From the sequence record OP557969.1: DNA of 64,000 nt; one strand, given 5' to 3'. Below, one piece after another: positions 10,535 to 24,259 of this stretch (its first letter is position 1; every line of letters starts with the position of its first letter). Position numbers and translations under genes: made by a program. Below the pieces are notes generated by a model. That model worked only from the letters and a program-made list of their open reading frames with translations. It ran no database searches and had not been told where the DNA came from. The stretch is from Escherichia phage ph0011.

Positions 10535-10568
10535 AGCCCACTTCTTATAGTGGGCTTTTTTGTGTTTA
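10535..10568 (+). terminator. rho-independent terminator
   Basis: AGCCCAC/GTGGGCT stem then TTTTTTGTGTTT. Confidence 0.7.
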
Positions 10569-10941: not shown

Positions 10942-11012
10942 AAAATAGTTTGACAATAGTTTTAAGTACTGCGATAATACATACATCAACTACTGAATAG
11001 GAATAAAAAACA

Positions 11013-11240
11013 ATGGCTATCGTAATCACTCGCGTAACTGGTACTACTGGCACTGCTTCAACTGTTGCTGTAATTACTAATAAGAAAGGTGCAGAATTAC
11101 ATTTTGCAATGGATAAATGGGCCGTTAATGAGTTTGGTCAGTGGGCAAGTGTAGAATACATTGAAACCTATCAAGTGCCATCGATTAGCTTAACTGATTT
11201 AGGTGTAGAACGTATCCTTTGCCTGGATGAATTAAATTAA
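11013..11240 (+). CDS. hypothetical protein (75 aa), Thr/Gly-rich N-terminus
   Basis: Promoter TTGACA..CGATAAT upstream; RBS AATAGG. Confidence 0.55.
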   Translation: MAIVITRVTGTTGTASTVAVITNKKGAELHFAMDKWAVNEFGQWASVEYIETYQVPSISLTDLGVERILCLDELN

Positions 11241-11326
11241 AAAAGTACTTGCAAAGTAAATCAAATAAAGTATAATACATTACATCAAGGGGAGAAAATG
11301 GTTCTCCCCACTAAGAGGAAACTAAT

Positions 11327-11470
11327 ATGAAAACTTGTCAATGTGGTAAAAAATCTATTACGGGTTTGAAACGGGGCGTTGCACTTTGCCAGTATCATTA
11401 TAATGCTCAAGTATGGGGTAAAGAATGGGCCGACCAGGTGGAAGCAGCAAAGAAAGCAAAAAGTAAGTAA
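11327..11470 (+). CDS. micro-protein (about 47 aa), possible zinc-ribbon (CxCG ... CQYH)
   Basis: Complete cassette: promoter, GGGGAGAA/TTCTCCCC hairpin, RBS AAGAGGAAA, ATG; hand-read. Confidence 0.45.
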   Translation: MKTCQCGKKSITGLKRGVALCQYHYNAQVWGKEWADQVEAAKKAKSK

Positions 11471-11482
11471 AAATATTATCAC

Positions 11483-11520
11483 AGTACTATTGACATAGAT
11501 TGATAGTACTGGCATAATAG
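11483..11520 (+). promoter_or_regulatory. class-2 early promoter (AGTACTATTGACA ... AGTACTGGCATAAT)
   Basis: TTGACA, 17-bp spacer, CATAAT, AGTACT flanking both elements; same module at about 14366 and 22582. Confidence 0.55.
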
Positions 11521-11551
11521 ATTTTATCAAGACAACTAAGAGGAAATTAAA

Positions 11552-11896
11552 ATGGCTAACATCAATACTATAGCAGCACAAAATATCAACCTGTCTTCTG
11601 TTGAAGTTGTACACATTGCCGCCCGGCGTTGGTTCCAGGCGTCTTATGGTAATACTTATTTCTCTTTAACGGTAGATGTTGAAATCAATGGCGAATTTAT
11701 TGAAGTAGTAAACGTGCCGTTCCAATATGGCTACGGGGATCATTTTGACACTGTAGCAATGGAAGAATTTAGCAAGGTTATTAATATGGAAGGTAAAGAG
11801 TTTTTACGCGGTTCTTATCTTTCCCGTTTTTGCCGTGATAATAATATTACTGTTTATAGTTCTGTTAGTGATGTTAAACGCAAAAAAGATCTTTAA
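11552..11896 (+). CDS. hypothetical protein, paralog of 18128..18451
   Basis: Shared GNTY, YGYG and C-terminal DVKRKKD; RBS AAGAGGAAA. Confidence 0.7.
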   Translation: MANINTIAAQNINLSSVEVVHIAARRWFQASYGNTYFSLTVDVEINGEFIEVVNVPFQYGYGDHFDTVAMEEFSKVINMEGKEFLRGSYLSRFCRDNNITVYSSVSDVKRKKDL

Positions 11897-11976
11897 TTAG
11901 CTTTACTTTATGCAGATACTTTGATATAGTGTCTGCATAGGGGAAAGAAATTAAATCAACTTAAGAGGATAGTAAA

Positions 11977-12246
11977 ATGAAAAATATCAGTACTTTAATC
12001 GATGCAGGTACACATGTTCGTCGGTCTATGGTTGCAACCAGTTCTACAAAACAAGTAGCGAGCGGTTATCTTGTATTTGTGCACGATGGTAAACTCCTGG
12101 AACGTTCAATCAATTTTGATGTTAAAAACAATTGCCGTTTTATTATCTTTCGCCGTGAACAATATAAGATCGACATTCCAGCGAAGCCCATTAGCGGGGC
12201 GTACAACGTGCAATCATTGTTTGAGCGTCAACCATACACCTATTAA
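11977..12246 (+). CDS. hypothetical protein (89 aa)
   Basis: RBS AAGAGGA upstream. Confidence 0.6.
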   Translation: MKNISTLIDAGTHVRRSMVATSSTKQVASGYLVFVHDGKLLERSINFDVKNNCRFIIFRREQYKIDIPAKPISGAYNVQSLFERQPYTY

Positions 12247-12297
12247 TCAAAACAACGTTAGCGGTCGATTTAGGCCGCTTATACTGGGGATTATATA

Positions 12298-12570
12298 ATG
12301 AATACTAATCAAGTACTGAACGAGATTGAAAGCATCATTAAACCGATGAAGCGTACTGATGCAATGTTAACACCGGAAGAATGCCGCTTATATGAGCGTT
12401 ACAGCGTCGAACAAGTACAGGAAATGGCTATGGCTATCCCTGCCGTTCAACAGCCTGAGAACGCAGTACAGGACGTTACAGGGGATTATAACATCAATCC
12501 AGTACTAGGGAAGATTACACCAATTACCGAAGAACAAAAAGACTACTTAAGCCAGTACTTAAAAGGTTAA
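12298..12570 (+). CDS. hypothetical protein (90 aa)
   Basis: RBS GGGGA upstream; acidic. Confidence 0.6.
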   Translation: MNTNQVLNEIESIIKPMKRTDAMLTPEECRLYERYSVEQVQEMAMAIPAVQQPENAVQDVTGDYNINPVLGKITPITEEQKDYLSQYLKG

Positions 12571-12575
12571 TTAAT

Positions 12576-12785
12576 ATGCTTACTGTACAGGATAAGATCG
12601 ACATCTTAAAGGTTAATATGTATGTGATTGATGCCGTACCTGGTAAAGTATTTGCATACGATGACACCACTGTAAGCAATTTCTACTATAGCCAGGAAGT
12701 GGGGGATCTTTCTGTACAGTCGGTTATTGAAAACGTAGTTAATGCAGCGTATGAGCATTTACTTTCAAATAGTACTTGCAATTAG
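12576..12785 (+). CDS. hypothetical protein (69 aa)
   Basis: ATG 6 nt after upstream stop. Confidence 0.5.
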   Translation: MLTVQDKIDILKVNMYVIDAVPGKVFAYDDTTVSNFYYSQEVGDLSVQSVIENVVNAAYEHLLSNSTCN

Positions 12786-12833
12786 TTTTTAAACGCGTAT
12801 AATGTTTTACATGAAGGGGAGAAATAGTACTCC
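12771..12833 (+). promoter_or_regulatory. early promoter plus 5' leader hairpin cassette
   Basis: AGTACTTGCAA, TATAAT, GGGGAGAAA-tag-TACTCCC hairpin. Confidence 0.55.
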
Positions 12834-12853
12834 CACTAATTAAGGAATAGTAA

Positions 12854-13000
12854 ATGAAAGCATCAAAAAAGAGTACTAACAAGAAAGCACGTTCAACTTT
12901 AGATGGGGTATTCCCTTTGCGTTTTGTGGATGAAGTAGTTTCCTACCCGCTGGGCCTTACTCCTGAGATGGTAGAAAGTTTGCGTAAATCTAAAAAATAG
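12854..13000 (+). CDS. micro-protein (about 48 aa), basic
   Basis: Cassette (promoter, hairpin, RBS TAAGGA) then ATG; hand-read. Confidence 0.4.
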   Translation: MKASKKSTNKKARSTLDGVFPLRFVDEVVSYPLGLTPEMVESLRKSKK

Positions 13001-13081
13001 TACTTGCAATTAGTTTTTAGTACTGTATAATGTTTTACATGAAGGGGAGAAATGATTCTCCCCAAGAACAGGAGAAACAAA

Positions 13082-13234
13082 ATGAAACAATACAACGCTC
13101 GGTTTGATGTTACTATCGGCAACGGCAAAGGTCAATTCTCTTTCAGTACTCGTAAGAGTTATACAGAAAACTTCTTGCGTAATTGTGCACTGACCGCCGC
13201 ACAAATTAAACATTATTTTCAGGCTAAAAAATGA
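13082..13234 (+). CDS. micro-protein (50 aa)
   Basis: Start at MKQYN after hairpin and RBS AGGAGA. Confidence 0.55.
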   Translation: MKQYNARFDVTIGNGKGQFSFSTRKSYTENFLRNCALTAAQIKHYFQAKK

Positions 13235-13320
13235 AATCATTAGCTTATTATAGTTCGGCCCTGGTCGGTGCATTGATCGCGGCATTGTTAGTAGCTTATC
13301 TATTCTTTATGGTGATTTAA
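13231..13320 (+). CDS. tiny hydrophobic peptide (about 29 aa), predicted single transmembrane helix
   Basis: ATGA overlap with upstream stop; MKSLAYYSSALVGALIAALLVAYLFFMVI; hand-read. Confidence 0.35.
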   Translation: MKSLAYYSSALVGALIAALLVAYLFFMVI

Positions 13321-13458
13321 ATGAATCCTAACGGTATAATTTACAGTACTCCTAAAACGAAAGCAGATAAAGCCAAAGCACGTAAAGCGAAAGTAAAGGA
13401 GTACATCAAGCAAGGCATGACACGAAAGGCGGCAGTACTGAAAGCTAAAAATAAATGA
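13321..13458 (+). CDS. lysine-rich micro-protein (about 45 aa)
   Basis: ATG directly after previous stop; highly basic; hand-read. Confidence 0.35.
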   Translation: MNPNGIIYSTPKTKADKAKARKAKVKEYIKQGMTRKAAVLKAKNK

Positions 13459-13459
13459 A

Positions 13460-13565
13460 AAAAGTGGTTGACTTCGGTCAGCCATTTTGCTATTATATAT
13501 TCATTGAGAGATAGCTCACTAGCCCACGGGGTGCGGGAGTGTATCTATTATATAAGCATTGAGTA
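13460..13565 (+). repeat. GGGTGCG-core intergenic element with its own TTGACT..TATTATATA promoter
   Basis: Related copies at about 17190, 20460 and 23200. Confidence 0.5.
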
Positions 13566-13606
13566 CTGAAAACTATTTTAAAAGTATTTGTAGAAAGTAC
13601 TTGCAA

Positions 13607-13660
13607 ACTATCTCAATAGGCGTATAATGTTTTACATCAAGGGGGAAACGGTTTCCCCTA
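13607..13660 (+). promoter_or_regulatory. early promoter plus 5' leader hairpin cassette
   Basis: AGTACTTGCAA, TATAAT, GGGGGAAAC-g-GTTTCCCC hairpin. Confidence 0.6.
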
Positions 13661-13678
13661 GTAATAAGGAATAAAATC

Positions 13679-14020
13679 ATGACTATTGCAATTGTACAAT
13701 CTAACTTTGAAAACGAAATCATCGCCCAAGCACTGCGTTTAAATGATGGTCGGGCCGAAATTAATTACGGTTTCAATTCAGGCGGTTGTGAAAAATATCA
13801 GTACTTTATAACTGCTGATGGCGGTGTCCTGGGTATTAATACAGTTATTGTAAACATTCAGAAAATTAATTTCAATGATCCAGACGATAGCCAGTTTTAC
13901 ATTATAGGCGTAGACGTGAACTATGAGGATGACTCACTAACTGATGATTACACTGGCGAGAAGTTAGAAAGTGCATACGGTGAAGATGATTATCAGTCAG
14001 TACCGGAAGATTTTGAATAA
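13679..14020 (+). CDS. hypothetical acidic protein (113 aa)
   Basis: RBS TAAGGA after hairpin; Asp/Glu-rich C-terminus. Confidence 0.65.
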   Translation: MTIAIVQSNFENEIIAQALRLNDGRAEINYGFNSGGCEKYQYFITADGGVLGINTVIVNIQKINFNDPDDSQFYIIGVDVNYEDDSLTDDYTGEKLESAYGEDDYQSVPEDFE

Positions 14021-14143
14021 TATTAAAAAATAGTTTGACAATAGATTATAGTACTGTATAATATTTTACATGAAGGGCAACGGGAAGTTTTTAAAACTTC
14101 CCTATAGGGAGAATAGTTCTCCCACTAACAGAGAGAAAACAAA

Positions 14144-14356
14144 ATGGCTAATATCTGCACTGTACTGAAAAATGCAAAACAAGTTTTATTTTCTGATCAC
14201 GATCATTTAAACAAGGATATTACTGGCGTTCGGAATATCAAAGATGTAAAAAGTGTTATGGGCATCTATTGCAATATGAAACGTGTTGGAACGTTCGGTA
14301 ATAAATTTCTATACCAAGCGGGGGATTACAATTTTACACTGACTATCATTAACTAA
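14144..14356 (+). CDS. hypothetical protein (70 aa)
   Basis: Promoter, double hairpin, RBS AGAGAGA. Confidence 0.6.
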   Translation: MANICTVLKNAKQVLFSDHDHLNKDITGVRNIKDVKSVMGIYCNMKRVGTFGNKFLYQAGDYNFTLTIIN

Positions 14357-14438
14357 AAATATTATCACAGTACTATTGACATAGATTGATAGTACTGGCA
14401 TAATAGATTTTATCAATTACACTACTAAGGAATTAAAA

Positions 14439-14618
14439 ATGGCTATCATCGCAAAAACTGAAATCATCGGCCTGGATTCTATCATCATGACGTTTGAAGA
14501 TCAAAAAGGTATGTATGTAGTTTCCTATGGTGATTATGTTCGGGAGTATGAAACGGTAGACGAAGCCTTTGAAAGTTACATTCGCCAGGTGAATAAAGCA
14601 TACGACGATTACCGCTAA
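14439..14618 (+). CDS. micro-protein (about 59 aa)
   Basis: Class-2 promoter, RBS TAAGGA, ATG; hand-read. Confidence 0.45.
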   Translation: MAIIAKTEIIGLDSIIMTFEDQKGMYVVSYGDYVREYETVDEAFESYIRQVNKAYDDYR

Positions 14619-14731
14619 AATATATTACCAGTACTATTAAAGATATTGACAACGTTTGATAGTACTGGCATAATAAGTTTTATAAACAGTAGTCAAATAG
14701 TAGTTAACTTAACAAAAGAGAGAGAAACAAA

Positions 14732-14875
14732 ATGATCGCACTGGATTCATTCATCGATGCAGTTCTGGCAAAAACTGGCGAGGATCTGACCGCAGAACAA
14801 TACGCGATGATCGAGCAATGCCAGCAAGACGGTAAATCGGTGAAAGATACTGTTAAGATTATCCGCAAGATGTAA
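14732..14875 (+). CDS. micro-protein (about 47 aa)
   Basis: Class-2 promoter, RBS AGAGAGAGA, ATG; hairpin follows; hand-read. Confidence 0.4.
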   Translation: MIALDSFIDAVLAKTGEDLTAEQYAMIEQCQQDGKSVKDTVKIIRKM

Positions 14876-14981
14876 GATTATAAGCCCATTAGTTAACGCT
14901 GGTGGGCTTTAATCATTTACCCTATACAATGCCAGTACTAAACCGTTTATCTCGTTAGAATGCATTACAGGACGTTTGACA

Positions 14982-15179
14982 ATGATTAGCATGAAATCAG
15001 TACAAAAACAAATAGAAACATTATCAAAAATTAAACGTAAACAGTACTCATTAGAATATAATATCAATGGTAACTATCATCTAATGAAAGAGAATAATTT
15101 TATCGTCATTGATGAATCATTGCAAATTATTAGTATAGTACTGAAAGCATTAATTAATGATAGAAAAAGGTTAAAATAA
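14982..15179 (+). CDS. hypothetical protein (about 65 aa)
   Basis: Track ORF begins at a TTG; first ATG chosen; no clear RBS. Confidence 0.35.
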   Translation: MISMKSVQKQIETLSKIKRKQYSLEYNINGNYHLMKENNFIVIDESLQIISIVLKALINDRKRLK

Positions 15180-15436
15180 TGGCAGTAGGATTCGCGAAAG
15201 ATGGAGCCGAGCAAGATGAGATTAACGCAGTTATTCAAGCCGCCGTTAACCACGCTAGAAAGCAAATTAACGCACAAATAGAATCACTGATACATTGCCT
15301 CGACTGCGGCGATAAAATCCCTGAGAATCGCCGACAGGCTGTTAAGGGTTGTAAGTACTGCATAACTTGCCAGGAGGATCATGATAGTACTTTTAAACGT
15401 CCCCCGCGTAATTGTTGGCATAGATCTATGAGATAA
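15179..15436 (+). CDS. TraR/DksA-family C4 zinc-finger protein
   Basis: C-x2-C-GDKIPENRR ... C-x2-C spacing typical of TraR-like proteins; start overlaps upstream stop. Confidence 0.7.
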   Translation: MAVGFAKDGAEQDEINAVIQAAVNHARKQINAQIESLIHCLDCGDKIPENRRQAVKGCKYCITCQEDHDSTFKRPPRNCWHRSMR

Positions 15437-15500
15437 AAAGTAATTGACAGTACTGAAAGATAGTGTATAATGTTTTATATCTTAACTGAGGATAGAAATC

Positions 15501-15857
15501 ATGGGAATACAACATATCACGCGGACCACTGACAATGGCGAGATCACTGGTTATCAAGTACAGGGCAAAGTAGCACAATTGCAGTACTGGTTTGTTAAAC
15601 GTGGAATCATTGCACCGGATCTTGATTATGACCGTGTAGCGTTTATTGATTCTCTTTATGTTGATCCTGATAGTCGGGGCAATGGTGAAGGTAACGAATT
15701 AATGAATGCCTTTATTGATGCCGCCGATGATTCAGATTGTATCATCTTAGAATGCGATACGGGAGAAGATAACGCCTTTAATCTTAAAGAATGGTACGAA
15801 GGTTTCGGATTCGAGGTATTGATAGATAGTGAATATCCTATCATGATTTTATCATAG
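15501..15857 (+). CDS. probable small GNAT-family acetyltransferase
   Basis: FIDSLYVDPDSRGNGEGNELMNAF resembles GNAT motif A; 118 aa. Confidence 0.4.
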   Translation: MGIQHITRTTDNGEITGYQVQGKVAQLQYWFVKRGIIAPDLDYDRVAFIDSLYVDPDSRGNGEGNELMNAFIDAADDSDCIILECDTGEDNAFNLKEWYEGFGFEVLIDSEYPIMILS

Positions 15858-15936
15858 TACTTGCATTTAGTTTTCAGTACTGTTATAGTACTTGCATCAA
15901 GGGGAAACATCTTCCCCTACTAAGAGGAAATAAAAA

Positions 15937-16125
15937 ATGGAAAACTTATCAAGTATTTTAGTACAAGATGATTTCGGTAATCCTGGAAGTGCTATCATTG
16001 TTCGGGGCAATAAAGCAACGTTTGTTATTGCTGGTGGACCCGTACAGCGTAGCATTAAAAATAATGCTGTTACCATTAATAATGTACGCTATCGCTTAGA
16101 TAAAGAATTAATTCATAAACTGTAA
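15937..16125 (+). CDS. hypothetical protein (62 aa)
   Basis: Promoter, GGGGAAAC..TTCCCC hairpin, RBS AAGAGGAAA. Confidence 0.6.
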   Translation: MENLSSILVQDDFGNPGSAIIVRGNKATFVIAGGPVQRSIKNNAVTINNVRYRLDKELIHKL

Positions 16126-16152
16126 TATTAATTTAATAGAGGATAACAATAA

Positions 16153-16476
16153 ATGTACATTCATACTACTGTCACAAAGGAAGTCCGTTGCCAGTTCGAA
16201 AGTATTCCGGGCGTATGTTTCATCACTGGTACGTTTTCCCCTGGTGATCGTGATAATCCAGTACTGTTACAGTTACGCCATCCATTATGGGATAAAGCAT
16301 TTGATCTGCCGTTGAATGAATTCGCAACCACTGCTGATAAGTACATTAAAAATATTCGCGAGAATGATTGCCTATTCATTAATGCTTTTAGTGATGCCGC
16401 GTTAAGTGAGATCCATGCTGTATTGGTTGCAATCATGGAATCAATGGAGAAAACTATATTCAAACAAGGTGAATAA
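16153..16476 (+). CDS. hypothetical protein (107 aa)
   Basis: RBS AGAGGA upstream. Confidence 0.6.
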   Translation: MYIHTTVTKEVRCQFESIPGVCFITGTFSPGDRDNPVLLQLRHPLWDKAFDLPLNEFATTADKYIKNIRENDCLFINAFSDAALSEIHAVLVAIMESMEKTIFKQGE

Positions 16477-16481
16477 AAACT

Positions 16482-16542
16482 ATTGACAATGCAATCCAGT
16501 ACTGTATAATAGTTTACATGAAGGGGAGAAATGATTCTCCCC
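16482..16542 (+). promoter_or_regulatory. early promoter plus 5' leader hairpin cassette
   Basis: TTGACA, AGTACTGTATAAT, GGGGAGAA-atga-TTCTCCCC perfect palindrome. Confidence 0.65.
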
Positions 16543-16559
16543 ACTAAGAGGAAAGAAAA

Positions 16560-16772
16560 ATGCAAGGTCAACTAATCGTTCGTAAATGGTCTGATACTAA
16601 CGAAAAACCGTGGGATGTACAATACATCGCCCCAAATGGTGAATCCAGATATCAACCAGGTGTAACGCATAGTACTGAGCAATTCGCCGCCGCTCATCGC
16701 GAACGTCTGTTACAATCAATGCAGCACGGTTCCGGTGAAAAATTCATTCAGGATCATTGGCTGAAAGATTAA
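16560..16772 (+). CDS. hypothetical protein (70 aa)
   Basis: ATG after hairpin and RBS AAGAGGAAA. Confidence 0.65.
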   Translation: MQGQLIVRKWSDTNEKPWDVQYIAPNGESRYQPGVTHSTEQFAAAHRERLLQSMQHGSGEKFIQDHWLKD

Positions 16773-16858
16773 AAAGTACTTGCACAGTACTGAATAAAGT
16801 GTATAATGTTTTATATCGGAAGGGGAATAGTTCCCCTCCTAACAAAGAGGAAAGTATA

Positions 16859-17032
16859 ATGGTCCAGGTAGAATTAACAGTACTGAAAGATCTGTTTTAT
16901 CGGATTGGTACTACTGGCGAATATCCGAAGGGTGATAATGCAAAACTTTACGTATCACTCGACTTATGGCAACGCGAACAATTAGCAACGGCCTGGCGTA
17001 AAGGCAAAGCAGATAGCGAGGTGAAAGCATGA
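16859..17032 (+). CDS. micro-protein (57 aa)
   Basis: Start at MVQVEL after hairpin and RBS AAGAGGAAA. Confidence 0.55.
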   Translation: MVQVELTVLKDLFYRIGTTGEYPKGDNAKLYVSLDLWQREQLATAWRKGKADSEVKA

Positions 17033-17178
17033 AAGAATTCTTATTTGAAGTAGTGTTTCAAGGTGTCGGTAATAACCAACTGATTCGATCAAGTGGTTAT
17101 AATGTTAACCAGGCATGGAATAACATTAAACAAATGTACCCTAACGCTATCACATATCGCAACCCGAAAGAAGTTTAA
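17029..17178 (+). CDS. micro-protein (about 49 aa)
   Basis: ATGA overlap with upstream stop; hand-read. Confidence 0.35.
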   Translation: MKEFLFEVVFQGVGNNQLIRSSGYNVNQAWNNIKQMYPNAITYRNPKEV

Positions 17179-17189
17179 AAATATTTGAA

Positions 17190-17290
17190 AAAGGGATTGA
17201 CTCCGGTCAGTCCCTTTGCTATTATATACGCATAGAAACAAATCAGCCCACAGGGTGCATAAATGTATCTATTGTTTGCTGGTGGCTAGT
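17190..17290 (+). repeat. GGGTGCG-core intergenic element with own promoter
   Basis: GGGATTGACTCCGGTCAGTCCCTTTGCTATTATATA then AGCCCACAGGGTGCAT; near-identical 5' part at 20460 and 23200. Confidence 0.5.
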
Positions 17291-17353
17291 ACTGAAAACT
17301 ATTTTTAAAAAAGTACTTGCATTGTACTTAGAATCAAGTATAATGTTTTACAT

Positions 17354-17424
17354 CAGGACGGGGAACGAAATAAGTAACCCCGTTAAGTAGTCCAGGAGTA
17401 AGACATACGAAAAACTCCCCTGAT
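17354..17424 (+). other. structured about 75-nt leader element (copy 2)
   Basis: Near-identical to 6731-6803; between tandem promoters upstream of 17494. Confidence 0.45.
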
Positions 17425-17493
17425 AAAATAGTTTGACAATAGAAAGTAAACGAGTATAATACTTACATCAACCACTGATAAGGAAACATTAAA

Positions 17494-17769
17494 ATGCGGA
17501 CTTTACTTACAGCTAACGAAATCGAGCAAGTACTGACTACTAATCTGGAACAATGGAAACGTGAAGCAGATATCCAGGCGGTTCAATGCCTTAACGATAA
17601 GTTAACGCCAGATGACTTAAGCACGATTGTTGATCCACAATTTTATGAAGATATTCACGACACGTCTTTAAGCGTCGAGGATGTACTTGATAAGCACTAC
17701 ATTGATACTGATTTACATGTTTACGGTCGTAAAAACTTTATCACTATTCACGACATTTACAATACTTAA
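17494..17769 (+). CDS. hypothetical acidic protein (91 aa)
   Basis: RBS TAAGGAAA upstream. Confidence 0.65.
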   Translation: MRTLLTANEIEQVLTTNLEQWKREADIQAVQCLNDKLTPDDLSTIVDPQFYEDIHDTSLSVEDVLDKHYIDTDLHVYGRKNFITIHDIYNT

Positions 17770-17772
17770 GTA

Positions 17773-17836
17773 TTGACAAAGTATCTTAGTACTGTATAAT
17801 AGTTTACATCAAGTGAGGGGAAACGGTTCCCCTCCT
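17773..17836 (+). promoter_or_regulatory. early promoter plus 5' leader hairpin cassette (duplicate A)
   Basis: TTGACA, AGTACTGTATAAT, GAGGGGAA..TTCCCCTC hairpin; about 85-bp near-identical copy at 18044-18127. Confidence 0.65.
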
Positions 17837-17857
17837 AACAAAGAGAGAGAAATTAAA

Positions 17858-18040
17858 ATGGCTAAGTGCACTATCTGTAAGAAAGAAATCGTATTAGTTC
17901 CAAGTGCCCGTGAACGTGCCGCTCGGTTCGGTGGCAAAGCGTCAGACTATACAAAAATGTTTACTGCCCATGCAGCTTGTCAAGTAGCAAAACGTTCACA
18001 AGAAAGCGTAGAATTAATGCGTAAACTTTCCAAAAAATAA
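17858..18040 (+). CDS. micro-protein (60 aa), Cys/Lys-rich
   Basis: Start at MAKCTICKKE after hairpin and RBS AGAGAGAGA; start set from track frame. Confidence 0.6.
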   Translation: MAKCTICKKEIVLVPSARERAARFGGKASDYTKMFTAHAACQVAKRSQESVELMRKLSKK

Positions 18041-18043
18041 GTA

Positions 18044-18104
18044 TTGACAAAGTATCTTAGTACTGTATAATAGTTTACATCAAGCGAGGGGAATGGTTCC
18101 CCTC
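18044..18104 (+). promoter_or_regulatory. early promoter plus 5' leader hairpin cassette (duplicate B)
   Basis: Near-identical to 17773-17836. Confidence 0.65.
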
Positions 18105-18127
18105 CTAACAAAGAGAGAGAAATAAAA

Positions 18128-18451
18128 ATGGCTATGATCCTTACCCAGAAAGTAGAACTGAAAATTGTAACCTCCTTTGACATTAAAGTTAATCGGTGGA
18201 CTGATAGCCACGGCAATACTTACCACTCCTGCTACGTGTCCGCATTGATTGGTGATCGCTGGGAAGACCTGGGACACGAAACCTTTACATACGGTTACGG
18301 CACACAAGGCGAGTACACGGGTTTAGAAATCATTAAGGAAACTGTAATAGGTTTCAACCCGAAAGAGAAAGTACTACACAGAATTGAGAAAGAGATCAAC
18401 AAAGAAATTACAGTTCGCTACTACGATGTAAAACGTAAGAAAGACATGTAA
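18128..18451 (+). CDS. hypothetical protein, paralog of 11552..11896
   Basis: Shared GNTY, YGYG, DVKRKKD. Confidence 0.7.
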   Translation: MAMILTQKVELKIVTSFDIKVNRWTDSHGNTYHSCYVSALIGDRWEDLGHETFTYGYGTQGEYTGLEIIKETVIGFNPKEKVLHRIEKEINKEITVRYYDVKRKKDM

Positions 18452-18546
18452 TAGAATCCATTTAAAGTACTATTTGACATTGCCCAGATAGTACTTTATA
18501 ATAGACTCTAACTTGTAGTACTAACTTAACTAATAGGATGTATACC

Positions 18547-18942
18547 ATGATTACTAAATTCTACGCTACCCGTGAAGCTGCCCGTATTGTTGCACGCGAG
18601 GAAGGAGCAGCATTTAAAGACATGGGCAAAGATGCACCGAAAGGTCAACGCTGGGCCGTACAGTTCAAAGAAATCTCTGATATTGTGAATTCACCTGAGC
18701 CAGTACTGACAGCAGCAGAACTAAAACGAGCGGATATGCTGGCGGCAATACTTGACGCACAAGATGAGTTTATCGCTGATTCTGATATCAAAGTACAGGT
18801 AAACCACACCGCATGGACTCACGCGGATCACCTGGCAAACCTTAAGCGTCCAAGTGAACTGATTCGCAACCAGAAAGAGATCCGACATGATCGTAAGGGT
18901 AATCGTGTAACAGTATACAGTAAACGCCGCCAGGTTATCTAA
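18547..18942 (+). CDS. hypothetical protein, paralog of 5861..6127
   Basis: Start at MITKFYATRE (RBS AGGA 8 nt upstream). Confidence 0.6.
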   Translation: MITKFYATREAARIVAREEGAAFKDMGKDAPKGQRWAVQFKEISDIVNSPEPVLTAAELKRADMLAAILDAQDEFIADSDIKVQVNHTAWTHADHLANLKRPSELIRNQKEIRHDRKGNRVTVYSKRRQVI

Positions 18943-18964
18943 TAACTTGCAGTACTAACAACAC

Positions 18965-18990
18965 GGCGGGATCAGTTCCCGCCTTTTTTA
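18965..18990 (+). terminator. rho-independent terminator
   Basis: GGCGGGA/TCCCGCC stem then TTTTTTA; same stem type as leader hairpins but with a U-run. Confidence 0.7.
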
Positions 18991-19003
18991 TAGGACAAAC
19001 AAA

Positions 19004-19258
19004 ATGATTAAGGTTCAACTATATAAAGATAACATCTTACGGGTACACTATAAAGCACCGAAGAGAATCATCACAAAGGCCGTACAGCTTGCTAATGAGT
19101 TTATTAATGGTAACCTATTACCGAGGAAGTTAAGCAACGGGAAACTGCGTGTAATCGATGTGGACACTAACAACAGGATAGTAATCGAGAACACAGGAAA
19201 GATAAACCTTTATGAGCATCAACAATACAATAAGAAAATAAAACTAATATCACGTTGA
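19004..19258 (+). CDS. hypothetical basic protein (84 aa)
   Basis: RBS AGGACAAACAAA. Confidence 0.55.
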   Translation: MIKVQLYKDNILRVHYKAPKRIITKAVQLANEFINGNLLPRKLSNGKLRVIDVDTNNRIVIENTGKINLYEHQQYNKKIKLISR

Positions 19259-19311
19259 CAGTACTCAATTGTTTTAGTATTATGTACACATACCAACACG
19301 GGAGAAACAAA

Positions 19312-19530
19312 ATGAAATTATCTAAAATCGAAAAGAAAACTATTGATGAAGCAGTTAAGCACGGTTATACCTTTCGTAATGATTCACATTTTACCAATTT
19401 TCAACAAGGGTATCGTACTATTAAAAAACTAATTGACAAAGGTTTATTAGTTGAAGTCAATAACGGTAACGGTATCGAGTATCAACCAACACAGGACGCA
19501 TTTTATTTTAAGAAATATAATATTATCTAA
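19312..19530 (+). CDS. hypothetical protein (72 aa)
   Basis: Start at MKLSKIEKK after RBS GGGAGAAACAAA. Confidence 0.55.
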   Translation: MKLSKIEKKTIDEAVKHGYTFRNDSHFTNFQQGYRTIKKLIDKGLLVEVNNGNGIEYQPTQDAFYFKKYNII

Positions 19531-19588
19531 TTGACAGTACTCAAATGTTTTAGTACTATATGTACATACCAACACGGGGGGAAACAAA

Positions 19589-19831
19589 ATGATTACTTTA
19601 GAAAAACGTATCAAAGAAACTACATCGCTGGTGGAACTGTTAACAGTACTCAAATGTAAAACAACACCATTCAGCACGCCGGACTTTATTAATATGGTTG
19701 ATGTTAATGGTCGCTATCGTATCACGGTCGAACAAGGAGCGGCGAAAGTATTCAGTACTAAAAACACGAAGGAAGTGATCCACGCCGTTAATGTTAAAAA
19801 AGTAGTTGCCATTGATAGTAAAGTACTGTAA
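19589..19831 (+). CDS. hypothetical protein (80 aa)
   Basis: RBS GGGGGGAAACAAA; upstream module repeats that of 19312. Confidence 0.55.
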   Translation: MITLEKRIKETTSLVELLTVLKCKTTPFSTPDFINMVDVNGRYRITVEQGAAKVFSTKNTKEVIHAVNVKKVVAIDSKVL

Positions 19832-19862
19832 TATAGTTTCATTAACTCAAGGAGAACATGCA

Positions 19863-20447
19863 ATGCGTAATTATACTAAATTCATCCGTACACTGTCAGA
19901 AATGGAAACCAACAAAGAGATCCTTTCAGCTTGTCGGTTAGCTGGCCTGGAGATCATCGGTGCTGGTTCTTCCCGTATAGTTTTCGCTTTAAATGATCGG
20001 TTAGTGATTAAGGTCGCGAATTGTGATGCGGGTGTAGAACAAAATGAAACTGAATGTAAGGTATGGAATTTTTTAGACTATGACCGCCCTCAATTGAAAC
20101 AGTACTTTGCAAAGGTGCATATGCATTTATGCGATCCTGATAATATGTTTATCGTTATGGATCGGTTGAGTACTGCAAGCAAAGGCAGTGTGAAGCACGT
20201 AAACGCGTGCAATGAATTAAAGTACAATATTAAACGTAATGCAATCGAACGCCAGCACCGCTTTGCTGATGCACTACAACACGTTGATGATACATTATCA
20301 ACACTAACGATAAGAGATATCAGAAAACAGAATATCGGCCAGGATCGTAATGGACTTATTAAAGTACTTGATTACGGTTTAACCAGCAATATCTGGAATC
20401 AGTACTATAAAAAGCGTGATGTGGCAGCAAGTAAGGTAACACGATAA
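19863..20447 (+). CDS. minimal protein-kinase-like protein (about 195 aa)
   Basis: Gly-rich loop IIGAGSSRIVF, Lys motif LVIKVA, catalytic-loop-like IRDIRKQN, DFG-like LDYG in canonical order and spacing; RBS AAGGAG. Confidence 0.6.
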   Translation: MRNYTKFIRTLSEMETNKEILSACRLAGLEIIGAGSSRIVFALNDRLVIKVANCDAGVEQNETECKVWNFLDYDRPQLKQYFAKVHMHLCDPDNMFIVMDRLSTASKGSVKHVNACNELKYNIKRNAIERQHRFADALQHVDDTLSTLTIRDIRKQNIGQDRNGLIKVLDYGLTSNIWNQYYKKRDVAASKVTR

Positions 20448-20459
20448 AAAAGATTAAAA

Positions 20460-20560
20460 AAGGGATTGACTCCGGTCAGTCCCTTTGCTATTATATATCC
20501 ATTGAGAGATAACTCACTGACCCATAGGGTGCGGAAGTGTATCTATTATATAAGTATTCA
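20460..20560 (+). repeat. GGGTGCG-core intergenic element with own promoter
   Basis: GGGATTGACTCCGGTCAGTCCCTTTGCTATTATATA ... CCCATAGGGTGCGGAAGTGTATCTAT. Confidence 0.5.
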
Positions 20561-20667
20561 GTACTGAAAACTATTTTTAAAAAAGTACTTGCATTGTACT
20601 TAGAATCAAGTATAATGTTTTATATCGAGAGGGGGAATGGTTCTCCCTGGCAATAAGGAATAAAATC

Positions 20668-20889
20668 ATGACTACAATGACTTGCATTTACGCTTCTAAT
20701 CTTCTGAATGATGCGGCCTTTAATGTTGATTCAGAATATCAATGTTATCGGGATGAAAATAAAAAAGTTTTTGTAGTTGATAATAATGGTTTCCATATTG
20801 AATTACAATCCGGCTTCACTGGTGTTGATGGTAAATCAGTATGGGGCGTACAGGATGATAAAGGCACATATCATTTTAAACGTAATTAA
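20668..20889 (+). CDS. hypothetical protein (73 aa)
   Basis: Promoter, GGGGGAATGGTTCTCCC hairpin, RBS TAAGGA. Confidence 0.65.
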   Translation: MTTMTCIYASNLLNDAAFNVDSEYQCYRDENKKVFVVDNNGFHIELQSGFTGVDGKSVWGVQDDKGTYHFKRN

Positions 20890-20892
20890 GTA

Positions 20893-20951
20893 TTGACAAA
20901 GTATATCAGTACTGTATAATAGTTTACATCAAGGGGAGAATAGTTCTCCCC
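20893..20951 (+). promoter_or_regulatory. early promoter plus 5' leader hairpin cassette (duplicate C)
   Basis: TTGACA, AGTACTGTATAAT, GGGGAGAA-tag-TTCTCCCC; near-identical copy at 21385-21442. Confidence 0.65.
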
Positions 20952-20972
20952 GATACTAAAAGGAATAAAATC

Positions 20973-21377
20973 ATGACTACTACTAATCAAGCTCGGTCCA
21001 TCGCCAACGATAAAAATCATGCTGCAATGGTCGCTGGTTACATTGAAGCTATGCAATTCAGTACTGTACACAATGAGAACGGCGATTACCTGGAAGATTA
21101 TGAATTATCAGAGCAAGCCCATCAAGCGGCGGTGATTGCATGTTCTCGCTTCATTGAGAAACACGGTAATGATCTGGAAGTAGTTCGCGGTATGTTTATT
21201 GATTACGGTTATGAGCAAGCTGGTCATGATCTCTTTCTTACTCGCGAAGGTCACGGCACTGGTTTTTGGGATCGTGGTTTAGGTCACTATGGCGATGTAT
21301 TCACGAAGTACTGCGAAGAAATCAACGTTTGCGATCCCTATGTAGGCGATGATAATCTAATCTATATGGGCGAATAA
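20973..21377 (+). CDS. hypothetical protein (134 aa)
   Basis: RBS AAAGGA after hairpin. Confidence 0.65.
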   Translation: MTTTNQARSIANDKNHAAMVAGYIEAMQFSTVHNENGDYLEDYELSEQAHQAAVIACSRFIEKHGNDLEVVRGMFIDYGYEQAGHDLFLTREGHGTGFWDRGLGHYGDVFTKYCEEINVCDPYVGDDNLIYMGE

Positions 21378-21384
21378 AAGTATT

Positions 21385-21442
21385 TGACAAAGTATATCAG
21401 TACTGTATAATAGTTTACATCAAGGGGAGAATAGTTCTCCCC
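21385..21442 (+). promoter_or_regulatory. early promoter plus 5' leader hairpin cassette (duplicate D)
   Basis: Near-identical to 20893-20951. Confidence 0.65.
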
Positions 21443-21461
21443 ACTAAAAGGAAACAAAATT

Positions 21462-21734
21462 ATGTCTAGCTACTCCGCAACTATGATCATCAAAGATATG
21501 AATAACAATCCTACCGCCGCTGGTGGATCGTTCGGTAACATTAACCTAGATGGTCGGTTATCCATGCAATCAGCCATCGATGCAGCGAAAGAAGTTTTTA
21601 AGAATGAATGTACTGTTAGTAAGCTGGATTATATGGGTTTCGCTATCGAGAAAACTACTCGTTTTGTGAACTACAAAAATCCACTGATGATTGATACTAA
21701 CCTGAAAGCTAACGAAGTGGGGTACTTATTATGA
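21462..21734 (+). CDS. hypothetical protein (90 aa)
   Basis: RBS AAAGGAAAC after hairpin. Confidence 0.65.
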   Translation: MSSYSATMIIKDMNNNPTAAGGSFGNINLDGRLSMQSAIDAAKEVFKNECTVSKLDYMGFAIEKTTRFVNYKNPLMIDTNLKANEVGYLL

Positions 21735-21922
21735 CAGTAGAAGAAGTTAAAAAAGTACTGGCAGTACTACGATATCATAATCATTGCAAGGTGAAGAATG
21801 ATCCTGATTATCTTGATTCATCCCTGGAGGAAGACACCTTGAACGCTATAAGCCATATGCAGACATTAGCAAAGCGTATGACTGAAAAGAATATGCCGGA
21901 CTATATCGGAAATAAAATTTAA
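21731..21922 (+). CDS. hypothetical protein (63 aa)
   Basis: ATGA overlap with upstream gene. Confidence 0.5.
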   Translation: MTVEEVKKVLAVLRYHNHCKVKNDPDYLDSSLEEDTLNAISHMQTLAKRMTEKNMPDYIGNKI

Positions 21923-22009
21923 AAAGTACTTGCATTGTAGTTAGATTAACGTATAATGTTTTATATCGAGAGGGGGAAATGGTTTCCCCTCAAGTCCAGG
22001 AGATACACC

Positions 22010-22273
22010 ATGAACACTATCGAAATCACTATCAATGCACACGTATACGACAACGTAGTACTGCAAACTACTATGACCGCCAATGATACCAGTACTTTGC
22101 GGAATACTGTTATTAGTGCCGTATGTGCCGCTATCGGTGATGTCGCCCTGGAAAATGCAAAACACGTAAACGATGGTTTCACTATGTGCAAACGTGATAA
22201 CGCAAAACATATCATCGTGGAAGGTTACGGCGGTGTAGAATTTAATGTTTATATGAAAAAAGTACTTGCATAA
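22010..22273 (+). CDS. hypothetical protein (87 aa)
   Basis: Start at MNTIEIT after GGGGGAAA..TTTCCCC hairpin and RBS CAGGAG. Confidence 0.6.
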   Translation: MNTIEITINAHVYDNVVLQTTMTANDTSTLRNTVISAVCAAIGDVALENAKHVNDGFTMCKRDNAKHIIVEGYGGVEFNVYMKKVLA

Positions 22274-22340
22274 TAACTAAAACAAAGTATAATGTTTTGC
22301 ATAGGGGGAGATATCCTCCCCCACTAAAAGGAGTAATAAA

Positions 22341-22565
22341 ATGGCTAACTTTGATGAACTGATGCGGGAAGTAGCTAACCTGGCAGAAGAGAAGAAATCA
22401 TTCGATTCTATCTATAACACCGCTCACCGTGATTCAGTACTGGCATGTAACCAGGATCAAAAAGATGAACTAATCGCCACCTATCATGAAGCATGGAAGT
22501 ACTACCGACAATGGGAGAAAGAAGAAAGTGAGTCTACCATTGACGGCCTCAATAATCTAATCTAA
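22341..22565 (+). CDS. hypothetical acidic protein (74 aa)
   Basis: Promoter, GGGGGAG..CTCCCCC hairpin, RBS AAAGGAG. Confidence 0.65.
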   Translation: MANFDELMREVANLAEEKKSFDSIYNTAHRDSVLACNQDQKDELIATYHEAWKYYRQWEKEESESTIDGLNNLI

Positions 22566-22581
22566 AAGTTTTATTTCAGTA

Positions 22582-22615
22582 CTATTGACATAGCTTGATA
22601 GTACTGATGTAATAA
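22582..22615 (+). promoter_or_regulatory. class-2 early promoter
   Basis: AGTACTATTGACA ... AGTACTGATGTAAT. Confidence 0.5.
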
Positions 22616-22641
22616 CTTTACTAACTACAAGGGGAAACATA

Positions 22642-22899
22642 ATGGATCAGTTCACACAATATCGGGTAAATCCACAAGCTATGGCCTACGTAGAAGACCA
22701 TAAAACGTTACCAGTACTGCAACCAGTTAAAGGCCATATCTATCGTGCAATGTCGTGGTGTACGGCCCAGGATGGCTATAAAACCGTAGCCGTGGGTATG
22801 TATTGCGGTGATGGTGAATGGTTTGATCCAAATAATCCGGTAGCCATTGACAGTACTGAAAAAATGAAATGGGCCGACTACATCGAAGATATTTCATAA
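22642..22899 (+). CDS. hypothetical protein (85 aa)
   Basis: RBS AAGGGGAAA. Confidence 0.6.
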   Translation: MDQFTQYRVNPQAMAYVEDHKTLPVLQPVKGHIYRAMSWCTAQDGYKTVAVGMYCGDGEWFDPNNPVAIDSTEKMKWADYIEDIS

Positions 22900-22989
22900 A
22901 AACTATTTGACAGTACTAACCAGTAATGTATAATGTTTTACATAGAGCGGGGGAATAGTTCTCCCGCCAATAGTTTGGAGTAAAACATT

Positions 22990-23190
22990 ATGTCTATCGC
23001 TATCGCCATGGTTGAAGTACTGAAAGAAGCTAAAGCCAACCAGATCGACGTAAAGATCCAGGAACTACAAAACGGCTTAATCGGCTGTACTTGTACCGCT
23101 GGTGGAGCGGCAGACTATCGAGAACACGAATCACTCGAATCACTGGTTCGGTATCTTACCATGATCGTTGATGATTGGAGAATCATCTAA
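22990..23190 (+). CDS. hypothetical protein (66 aa)
   Basis: Promoter, GCGGGGGAA..TTCTCCCGC hairpin, RBS GGAG. Confidence 0.6.
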   Translation: MSIAIAMVEVLKEAKANQIDVKIQELQNGLIGCTCTAGGAADYREHESLESLVRYLTMIVDDWRII

Positions 23191-23199
23191 CAAAAAAGA

Positions 23200-23330
23200 A
23201 TAAAAAAAGGGATTGACTCCGGTCAGTCCCTTTGCTATTATATACGCATAGACAAAAACTAGCCCACAGGGTGCATAGGTGTATCCAAAATATATAGTTA
23301 ATAACGGTGAGTAACTATCTGCTGGTGGAA
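23200..23330 (+). repeat. GGGTGCG-core intergenic element with own promoter (longest copy)
   Basis: Same 5' part as 17190 copy with an insertion in the central region. Confidence 0.5.
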
Positions 23331-23435
23331 CTAAAACTATTAATAAAAAAGTATTGACAAAGTATATCAGTACTGCAATAATGTATCTCATAGGGCGGCA
23401 ATGGTGCGACGGCCCACAAAGTTAGGAGATTCAAA

Positions 23436-23768
23436 ATGACTACTTCAATCGCTATCGTTAAAGCTTTCATCCGTACTAATGTTTCCTCTGTATTCATCGA
23501 CGGCCTCGACCGTAACGTAGAATACTCAATCATTATCGCACAAACGGCAAACGGTTCTCGGTACATCCTGAATGATAGTGAAGCAAATCACTACTACTTC
23601 ACTAAAGCCACTGGCTTTAAACGCATCGATGCTGATGTAGTATACGCTAAGATGAATAAGCTGGTAGATAAGATTAACGCTAAAGGTACTATAGATTTAC
23701 AGTACTGGACCGAAACCGATCCAGAATATGGATCTCACCGCTACCTGAATCCAGGTATTAAAATGTAA
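23436..23768 (+). CDS. hypothetical protein (110 aa)
   Basis: Promoter, GGGCGG..CGGCCC hairpin, RBS TAGGAG. Confidence 0.65.
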   Translation: MTTSIAIVKAFIRTNVSSVFIDGLDRNVEYSIIIAQTANGSRYILNDSEANHYYFTKATGFKRIDADVVYAKMNKLVDKINAKGTIDLQYWTETDPEYGSHRYLNPGIKM

Positions 23769-23832
23769 AAAGTACTTGCATAGTACTTAGATTCATGTAT
23801 AATGTTTTACATAGAGAGGGGGAAATGGTTCT
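23766..23832 (+). promoter_or_regulatory. early promoter plus 5' leader hairpin cassette
   Basis: AGTACTTGCAT, TATAAT, GAGGGGGAAA-tgg-TTCTCCCTC hairpin. Confidence 0.6.
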
Positions 23833-23857
23833 CCCTCCTAAATTAAGGAGTTTTATC

Positions 23858-24259
23858 ATGACCTTCTCAATCACTTCCTTCGCTGACGTTTTAGTACTGG
23901 CTCGGACTTTTGGTAAAGATGCACTGGAGTACGCTGTAAGTAATGGCACTATCCAACCGGAACAGTGCCGCATCATTGGAAACTGCAAACGTTGGGCGGT
24001 TTCCAATACTATTGCACTGGAAAACTTCCACGATGGCAACAATGAATATTCTGTTGATGTAGTATTCGAAGCCGTTGATCTCGGCGGTATCTATAATACT
24101 AACCTGAATGATGTGCGTATCGTTCGCACTGGGTTCGGTGCTTATGATGTATCTATTCGTGAAGCTATGAACACCGGATACATTAGCAAGGACTTACTTG
24201 CTCACATCATGCAGCTGTGTACGGAACGTAACGAAGCACGCACTATCTTAGGGTTGTAA
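23858..24259 (+). CDS. hypothetical protein (133 aa)
   Basis: Start at MTFSITSF after hairpin and RBS AAGGAG. Confidence 0.65.
   Translation: MTFSITSFADVLVLARTFGKDALEYAVSNGTIQPEQCRIIGNCKRWAVSNTIALENFHDGNNEYSVDVVFEAVDLGGIYNTNLNDVRIVRTGFGAYDVSIREAMNTGYISKDLLAHIMQLCTERNEARTILGL

Follow-up and report, generated by a model that had tools for sequence, protein, structure and literature searches.

The first third or so of a 64,000-nucleotide stretch of Escherichia phage ph0011 (record OP557969.1; hereafter the window) carries an array of small early genes, each preceded by a compact module consisting of a promoter, usually a hairpin, and a ribosome-binding site. The present work concerns the modules of the interval 17773-21442, where two pairs of near-identical copies, termed A and C, enclose one gene each, g17858 and g20973. 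An earlier note, made from the sequence alone, had described these as repeats of about 85 bp before 17858 and 18128 and of about 65 bp before 20973 and 21462, lying between unrelated coding sequences and marking recent recombination. Alignment confirmed the near-identity, and the lengths given were roughly right. Specifically, the copies of pair A (17768-17864 and 18039-18134) differ at four positions in about 97 aligned columns, namely T/C at 17812, a single-nucleotide indel in the loop together with C/T, and T/A immediately ahead of the ATG, and they are 94% identical from the -35 hexamer to the ATG. Pair C is 90% identical over the same extent and contains an identical 59-nt core (20893-20951 = 21384-21442), for which 100 dinucleotide shuffles gave an expectation of 0 matches. 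The flanking coding sequences are indeed unrelated: the proteins of g17858 and g18128 gave no BLASTP alignment, and the best E-value between those of g20973 and g21462 was 2.1. A Pfam scan of g17858 and g20973 returned no family, although by tblastn g20973 belongs to a widespread phage gene family with distant homologues in many phage groups. Modules B1 and B2, which have no hairpin, bound a third such cassette within the interval. The coordinates of all these features are collected in Table 1.

By similarity, the phage groups with 121Q, PBECO4 and fEgEco12 (Asteriusvirus, Rak2-like jumbo phages). Positions 17000-22000 of the window are 95-98% identical to the Asteriusvirus jumbo coliphages fEgEco12, WPEC3, Ecwhy_1 and G17, with 121Q and PBECO4 more distant. 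The genome of fEgEco12 has a direct terminal repeat (DTR) of 20,993 bp, established with PhageTerm and restriction mapping (PMC13070987), and the counterpart of 17000-22000 occupies 13.3-18.3 kb of that genome; likewise, the ends of the WPEC3 and G17 records map to window position 24689. Both repeat pairs therefore sit within the DTR. Its length here is inferred to be about 21 kb, with boundaries near 4031 and 24690, and the source record would therefore have the repeat embedded, as in a collapsed or permuted assembly.

The DTR block consists of small plus-strand genes, mostly annotated as "hypothetical", and 8 of the 10 proteins of the interval have no Pfam family. A query with the DTR region matched 88 records from several genera, whereas a control segment at 40-45 kb matched 33 records, all of them Asteriusvirus. 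The control is collinear in the same genomes at 85-93% identity, which is lower than that of 17000-22000, while the latter is far richer in gene-level indels and is common to other phage genera. This combination of higher identity, more indels and cross-genus sharing suggests that phages circulating together have exchanged the early region often and recently. Six phage records labelled "Campylobacter" also match 17000-22000, and these may be mislabelled or contaminated.

Table 1. Modules, cassette genes and other features discussed in the text (window coordinates; SD, Shine-Dalgarno sequence)
Feature	Position	Strand	Remarks
Module A1	17765-17857	+	TTGACA (17773)-N16-TGTATAAT; stem-loop GAGGGGAA-ACGG-TTCCCCTC (~17814-17833); SD; up to ATG 17858; 12/12 promoter match
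Cassette gene g17858	17858-18040	+	60 aa
Module A2	18036-18127	+	Partner of A1; up to ATG of g18128 (18128-18451)
Module B1	19245-19311	+	Hairpin-less; TTGACA-N17-TATTAT plus SD; before g19312; 81% identical to B2
Cassette gene g19312	19312-19530	+	72 aa; missing in 7 of 21 Asteriusvirus loci, junction overlap 62-86 nt
Module B2	19521-19588	+	Partner of B1; before g19589
Module C1	20885-20972	+	TTGACA (20893)-N16-TGTATAAT; stem-loop GGGGAGAA-TAG-TTCTCCCC; SD; up to ATG 20973
Cassette gene g20973	20973-21377	+	134 aa
Module C2	21376-21461	+	Partner of C1; before g21462 (21462-21734)
Module of the TTGCAT -35 subtype	20581-20667	+	AAAAGTACTTGCAT...TATAAT plus hairpin; nearest relative 21922-22009
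Module before g22010	21922-22009	+	Partner of 20581-20667 (TH47 deletion) and of 22258-22340 (121Q deletion)
Third adjacent reciprocal-nearest pair	8837-9245	+	8837-8924 and 9159-9245, 85% identical; flanks g8925 (8925-9161)
Composite terminator-promoter repeat	17177-17270; also 20446-20540, 23193-23285	+	Hairpin AAAGGGATTGACTCCGGTCAGTCCCTTT holding the -35; TTGACT-N17-TATTAT
Canonical intrinsic terminator	18965-18992	+	GGCGGGATCAGTTCCCGCC then TTTTTT; only one in the interval; annotated terminator in G17 and UE-S1
Indels away from modules (junction homology <= 13 nt)	+317 nt at 15180; 15454-15875; 16125-16475		15454-15875, GNAT cassette; 16125-16475, g16153
Further indels away from modules (<= 13 nt)	22902-23193; +223 nt at 17297; 9539-9813		22902-23193 in TH47; 17297 in PBECO4

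The modules of pairs A and C follow a fixed order: the stop codon of the prior gene, TTGACA-N16-TGTATAAT, a conserved AGTTTACATCAA with about 12 nt to the stem, a stem-loop, a purine-rich Shine-Dalgarno sequence (SD) and the ATG. When the window was scanned for a TATAAT box with a stable hairpin behind it, these four modules proved to be, by type, ordinary members of a family that had gone unnoticed in the earlier note. This family comprises 24 hairpin-bearing and about seven hairpin-less sigma70-promoter/SD modules, all on the plus strand, confined to 4985-23858 and each standing before a small early gene. Covariance-model matches of the hairpin were found only at 5030-23840, with none between 24 and 64 kb of the window. 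All 24 hairpin modules have TATAAT and the same layout throughout, and in 22 of them an SD (AAGGA, AAGAG or GGAG) lies 6-10 nt before the ATG; the two others (6716 and 17339) precede a non-coding stretch. Two -35 subtypes occur, TTGACA and AAAAGTACTTGCA(A/T), and direct reading reveals an A/T-rich tract upstream of the -35, as in modules that start AAAAGTACTTGCA..., AAAAACTATTGACA... or TTAAGTATTGACA... Perfect (12/12) sigma70 matches number eight in 16-24 kb, and the window as a whole contains 17 TTGACA-N17-TATAAT-like sites against 2.0 expected.

The stem-loop is 8-9 bp long, with a G-rich 5' arm, a C-rich 3' arm and a deltaG of -9 to -15 kcal/mol, and in nearly all of the 24 modules it starts 10-14 nt after the -10, that is, in the predicted 5' untranslated region (UTR). 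Covariation was examined on a structure-aware alignment of 22 plus-strand copies, 18 from the window and four from two other phage genera, in which 98.3% of cells are paired. Both-sided changes occur in five of eight pairs and in 28 cells, compared with 7.9 +/- 2.6 after shuffling (none of 500 shuffles reached 28), and pairing fell to 49-83% when the partner was moved by 1-3 columns in a slid-register control. A plain MAFFT alignment, which put stems with 3-nt loops out of register with those having 4-5-nt loops, was dropped for pair counting in favour of the covariance-model alignment. The wobble pairs of the 24 window hairpins all place G in the 5' arm and T in the 3' arm (16 of 16), so the pairing holds only in the sense RNA; covariance scores are likewise some 15-20 bits higher on the plus than on the minus strand. 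The stem-loop probably acts at the RNA level, and its candidate roles, as predicted from sequence, are stabilisation or processing of the 5' UTR, and attenuation or 3'-end protection of read-through transcripts. The hairpins were considered as intrinsic terminators and ruled out, since no T-run follows them in any of the 24 modules; a terminator scan picked only 18965-18992 and three composite elements (17190, 20459 and 23206). An Rfam scan of window positions 1-26000 at E <= 1 returned only a sub-threshold Trp-leader match, so neither the hairpins nor the remaining conserved non-coding boxes of the region are accounted for by a known RNA family.

Gene content between modules in related genomes

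The homologous interval was compared in 21 Asteriusvirus genomes, with each window gene scored as present or absent; the event counts leave out EJP2, whose divergence was too great for breakpoints to be mapped. Gene order in relatives, which the earlier note had proposed as the deciding comparison, is clearly not identical. The cassette gene g17858 is missing in six of the 21 genomes (121Q, JP4, UE-S1, phAPEC6, TH47 and SHEFM2K), while g20973 stands at this position in eight loci, with an 88% copy in the diverged EJP2, and is missing in the remaining 12. Genomes that lack a gene in this way are without exactly one repeat period, of 271, 276 or 491 nt. On the shorter genome, the left alignment extends through the whole of copy 1 and the right one starts where copy 2 starts, giving an overlap of 62-108 nt between them; at the junctions of pairs A and C this overlap is 85-108 nt, and the lone module matches both window copies. 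Examined at base level, 18 junctions each consist of a single module, exact in length and register, with the upstream flank of copy 1 and the downstream flank of copy 2. The crossover positions differ between genomes, with at least two each for cassettes A and C. For example, at cassette C the copy 1 "CGATACTAAAAGG" downstream of the hairpin is retained in JP4, PBECO4, slurp01 and others, which change over immediately ahead of the SD; in UE-S1 the change to copy 2 lies 5' of "CGATACTAAAAGG". Such in-register single modules with varying crossovers support the earlier proposal that the repeats are substrates for recombination that deletes or adds the gene between them.

In all, eight distinct module-bounded indels were found within 8.8-23.4 kb, with overlaps of 45-108 nt. 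Thereby TH47 is without four genes (20648-21918), between the module at 20581-20667 and its nearest relative at 21922-22009, and 121Q is without g22010, for which 21922-22009 and 22258-22340 are the partners. Extra cassettes are also present, one at 17421-17496 in 121Q, phAPEC6 and JP4, and another at 23340-23407 in 121Q. All four presence/absence combinations were seen for the cassette pairs A/B, B/C, A/D and C/D, and the cassettes therefore assort independently.

No two pairs in the family are more alike than pairs A and C, and the copies of each are reciprocal nearest neighbours, whereas other members have best matches of 64-86%, usually to a non-adjacent module. Adjacent reciprocal nearest neighbours are limited to pairs A and C and the pair at 8867/9189, and all three flank polymorphic cassettes; the top rank of pairs A and C in similarity would stem from their position on either side of two single-gene cassettes that are polymorphic at present. 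A blind prediction from similarity alone, namely that g8925 between 8867 and 9189 should be polymorphic, held in two of the four genomes examined. Specifically, g8925 is missing by exactly one period in TH47 (86-nt overlap) and in 121Q (45-nt overlap), and it is kept in G17 and JP4, where a gap of about 270 nt corresponds to a separate indel at 9539-9813.

The two copies of a pair also trade sequence with each other. Two variants of the hairpin region alternate in pair A among the genomes with g17858: AAGTGAGGGGAAACGG marks copy 1 and AAGCGAGGGGAATGG marks copy 2 in the window, G17, fEgEco12, Turkey3 and EC.P1; the arrangement is reversed in UB and slurp01, and chimeras occur in PBECO4 and SP27. 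The post-hairpin variants of pair C likewise change places between copies. Because both copies and their distinguishing variants are common to many genomes, the duplications predate the split of those genomes, and the high identity within pairs reflects repeated exchange or conversion between copies rather than one recent event. As such, the part of the earlier note that spoke of recent recombination stands for the continuing exchange between copies, as seen in variant swapping, but not for the duplications themselves, which are older than the divergence of the genomes that share them. Its further suggestion that genes may be swapped between repeats received modest support. Genomes more than 98% identical differ in patches of 8-19% divergence; of 11 such patches, 5 have their start within a module, where modules make up about 19% of the sequence, and the patches end inside coding sequence.

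Finally, single cassettes are shared with phages of other genera. Justusliebigvirus muut (146 kb) has window positions 17338-17846 at 91% identity; the homology begins in the promoter at 17339 and ends in the A1 hairpin, and so covers one gene and its flanking modules. The 86-92-nt spacers of muut have the same layout of stop codon, TTGACA, TATAAT, G-C hairpin, SD and ATG, and three more window genes have homologues there in a different order. In Justusliebigvirus PHB05, window positions 17793-18116 are matched at 88.5%, and by tblastn the g17858 protein is 95% identical in PHB05, ALITA and BME3 of that genus. The Vequintavirinae phage W70 has window positions 8860-9152 at 89%. As a separate observation, the promoter part of a module at 8357-8415 is 92% identical over 59 nt to a segment of the Yersinia jumbo phage fHe-Yen9-03 (Eneladusvirus) that is annotated there as -35/-10 signals.

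A proposed dual role for the modules

The repeats are probably regulatory cassettes of the promoter-early stem-loop (PeSL) type known from T4-type phages, which also serve as recombination homology. Each small early gene of the approximately 21-kb terminal repeat would thus bear its own 85-95-nt module right after the prior stop codon, made up of a host sigma70 promoter that is close to consensus and has an extended -10, followed by a conserved initiation region, a stem-loop beginning about 7 nt into the predicted transcript, an SD and the ATG. The primary role of the module would be strong, autonomous early expression of each gene by the host RNA polymerase. The stem-loop would probably act at the RNA level, either by stabilising or processing the 5' UTR or by attenuating read-through from upstream units. 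Since the same 60-100 nt stand in direct orientation before unrelated genes, the modules are also portable homology, as the comparison of genomes shows. Homologous recombination or copy-choice between two modules would lead to the loss or gain of exactly one period of gene plus module, and would also exchange sequence between copies and start the patches of allelic replacement. The same architecture in unrelated coliphages would allow single cassettes to move between genera. Homologous recombination, copy-choice slippage and the excision and integration of circles are not separable from sequence alone.

Several observations weigh against this reading. Of the distinct indels in the region, about half have junction homology of 13 nt or less and are not bounded by modules (Table 1), and the repeats therefore do not explain all of its plasticity. 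One example is the 275-nt segment at 9539-9813, downstream of g9246, which is reduced to about 39 nt in G17, JP4, slurp01, UB and four Salmonella Asteriusvirus phages, with a junction away from the hairpin modules. Selection for intact promoters would enrich intergenic breakpoints under any mechanism, and each event could be either an insertion or a deletion. Across the family as a whole, the relation between adjacency and similarity is weak (0.716 vs 0.695, p = 0.02). The alignment used for covariation had itself been fitted to the model, and its copies are paralogues, which inflates significance based on shuffling. Furthermore, the predicted transcription start, about 7 nt after the -10, leaves 6-8 unpaired nt before the hairpin; if transcription does start there, this lead exceeds what the classical 5'-stabiliser rule tolerates. 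Promoter activity, transcription starts and the role of the stem-loop are themselves predictions.

Among other mechanisms, replication slippage or template switching (copy-choice) between the repeats, with G/C-rich palindromes stalling the fork, would suit repeats that are short (60-100 nt), direct, 271-1341 nt apart and endowed with stable palindromes, and the in-register loss of one period is equally a signature of slipped-strand deletion. Slippage covers deletions and tandem duplications but not the arrival of foreign cassettes from other genera, and the reciprocal swapping of variants between copies is unexplained by it; for these reasons, we think it unlikely.

The likeness of the modules might instead reflect functional constraint only, with illegitimate events followed by selection for one intact module. 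The indels at 15180, 15454-15875, 16125-16475 and 22902-23193, with their minimal junction homology, would fit such survivorship, and modules lie in nearly every spacer, so any whole-gene indel ends near one. Random intergenic breakpoints, however, would rarely yield lone modules exact in length and register, as were found at 18 of 18 junctions, and survivorship does not account for pair-specific variants that recombine within the module at differing points and swap between copies. The most similar pairs also flank polymorphic cassettes, and the similarity-based prediction for g8925 was borne out in two of four genomes. Constraint with survivorship is accordingly a very improbable explanation.

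An integron-like system, in which the stem-loop would act as an attC-like structured site for a dedicated phage recombinase and cassettes would be excised and inserted as circles, draws on the strong conservation of the hairpin as a structure and on the movement of single promoter-plus-gene units between unrelated phage genera. A parallel with integrons was drawn by Arbiol et al. (PMC2839356), who also detected circles for T4-type PeSLs. Yet the crossovers are not fixed, some falling within the promoter, 5' of the hairpin, and others on its 3' side, near the SD, and the hairpin-less pair 19245/19521 bounds an indel equally cleanly. The sense-strand-only G-T wobbles point to a role in RNA rather than in folded DNA. 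No recombinase, integrase or attI was identified in the window, although no systematic search for one was made, and no recombinase was identified in RB49/phi1 (PMC2839356). We give an integron-like system little credence.

Repeat collapse or expansion in short-read assemblies that mimics gene presence/absence, which might be feared from records marked UNVERIFIED (Ecwhy_1, TH47 and CMSTMSU, the last with frameshift-like errors in its modules), has a negligible probability, given that each state is found repeatedly in independent genomes, sequenced in different laboratories and on different platforms (12 without g20973), that repeats of 60-100 nt are shorter than reads, and that both states are annotated with intact ORFs.

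Beyond the PeSL-type reading, it is conceivable, if rather doubtful, that the module is a shared "adaptor" of unrelated virulent coliphage families (Asteriusvirus, Justusliebigvirus, Vequintavirinae and possibly Eneladusvirus), supporting an inter-family exchange network for host-takeover genes in which the covarying stem-loop is a specific functional element and not incidental structure. The stem-loop could then be an RNA-level signal read by a shared factor of host or phage origin, or else a structure that stimulates recombination. Were such an adaptor real, the long terminal repeats of jumbo phages would work as cassette-capture platforms.

The PeSL-type reading itself has practical consequences. 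It pinpoints dispensable or exchangeable early genes in a phage group under development for therapy, and it carries the warning that the gene content of the terminal repeat is unstable. The modules are also compact and apparently very strong promoter-leader units, and as such offer natural "landing pads" for engineering.

Other elements of the terminal repeat

The composite terminator-promoter repeat of Table 1 punctuates the cassette array and is annotated as ARNOLD terminators in G17. Related composite copies lie near 6476 and 13468 on the plus strand and near 4765, 6648 and 8811 on the minus strand, for a total of eight on both strands. In 8 of 8 related composite promoters, a conserved box, RRCCCAYNGGGTGCR, occurs 25-35 nt after the -10. 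The box gave no supported consensus fold and no Rfam match; small RNAs could begin there, or a protein could bind to it.

No hexamer is more over-represented than the palindrome AGTACT, which stands in the context (C)AGTACT(G), with 248 occurrences against 21 expected (11.6x) in the window and a 19x excess within 1-24700; examples lie at 17788-17793, 18059-18064 and 20908-20913. Its density is 3.0/kb in coding and 7.9/kb in non-coding sequence, and its occurrences are divided about equally among the three reading frames (55/43/50), from which it follows that AGTACT is selected at the DNA level. In many modules it adjoins the -35 (AAAAGTACTTGCAA) and the extended -10 (AGTACTGTATAAT).

A conserved non-coding stretch of about 85 nt occurs at 17346-17432 and 6723-6810, in each case after a full promoter (17339 and 6716) and before a second promoter. 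It is also present in muut (locus L009, 3010-3098) and is thus conserved between Asteriusvirus and Justusliebigvirus. It is predicted to fold into two hairpins enclosed by an outer helix, AUCAGG/CCUGAU, the three copies being too few for covariation. Finally, two genes of the interval gave domain matches: g19004 (19004-19258, 84 aa) matches the ParE-like toxin domain PF24732 (E = 4.6e-11), and g19863 (19863-20447, 194 aa) matches a protein kinase weakly, at E = 0.004, which does not reach the Pfam cut-off; some relatives carry it under the annotation Ser/Thr kinase.

Comparison with known cassette systems

The pre-early/early blocks in the long terminal repeats of T5-like and Rak2-like phages are thought to be expressed first, for host takeover. 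In the Rak2-like phage CBB, RpoD-type promoters stand before short hypothetical genes in or next to a terminal repeat of about 20 kb (PMC5259590). The array described here resembles both in its clusters of promoters before short hypothetical genes in or near a long terminal repeat. In contrast, the descriptions of Rak2-like phages and CBB list promoters only, and report no conserved stem-loop, module family or link to gene content. A search of the Asteriusvirus literature likewise found no account of these modules or of the AGTACT excess; its coverage was incomplete and novelty is therefore unproven, but a PeSL-type cassette system is apparently undescribed in this phage group.

The resemblance to integron cassettes lies in single-gene units, in structured and imperfectly conserved palindromic sites, in gain, loss and reordering, and in one reading direction. 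Unlike integron cassettes, each unit here brings its own promoter, the crossovers are not at a fixed attC point, and hairpin-less modules behave alike; the resemblance is an analogy only.

The cassette-shuffling model of T4-type phages, to which the earlier note had compared the locus, proves to be the right comparison. PeSLs were described in RB49/phi1 (Arbiol et al. 2010, PMC2839356) and in PST/T4 and nt-1/KVP40 (Comeau et al. 2014, PMC4122927) as elements of about 100 bp found before ORFans and comprising an A/T-rich lead, a sigma70 early promoter, a Gn-loop-Cn stem-loop and an SD/ATG, and their recombination gives rise to indels, replacements and mini-circles (PMC2839356, PMC4122927). Differences do exist. 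The host of the present modules is an Asteriusvirus, a Rak2-like jumbo phage rather than a T4-type myovirus, which is a taxonomic limit and not a mechanistic feature; the array lies within a direct terminal repeat of about 21 kb; and cassettes are common to unrelated genera at about 90% nucleotide identity. The stem-loop here is downstream of the -10, whereas its usual place in RB49/phi1 is over the promoter hexamers or between them, and PST has it upstream of the promoter, although placement is a weak discriminator, given that Arbiol et al. note "various positions" (PMC2839356). A terminator or attenuator role belongs to the definition of T4-type PeSLs, and the present hairpins, having no T-run, are not canonical intrinsic terminators. 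Mini-circles are a feature of T4-type PeSLs, while the system described here is known from genome sequences alone.

Six sequence-level features of T4-type PeSLs are nonetheless found here. Those of the module itself are the near-consensus early promoter, the A/T-rich lead, the Gn-loop-Cn stem-loop, and the SD plus ATG at the 3' end. Likewise, the modules cluster in a hyperplastic region with many small ORFan genes, and indels and replacements fall on them, leaving one chimeric module with crossover points that vary. The comparative evidence is unusually clean, with in-register junctions, variant swapping and module-bounded cassettes across genera. No new principle is involved; rather, the PeSL model of T4-type phages is extended to a further phage group, and PeSL cassette shuffling is carried from the T4-type phages to the Rak2-like jumbo phages and their terminal repeats.

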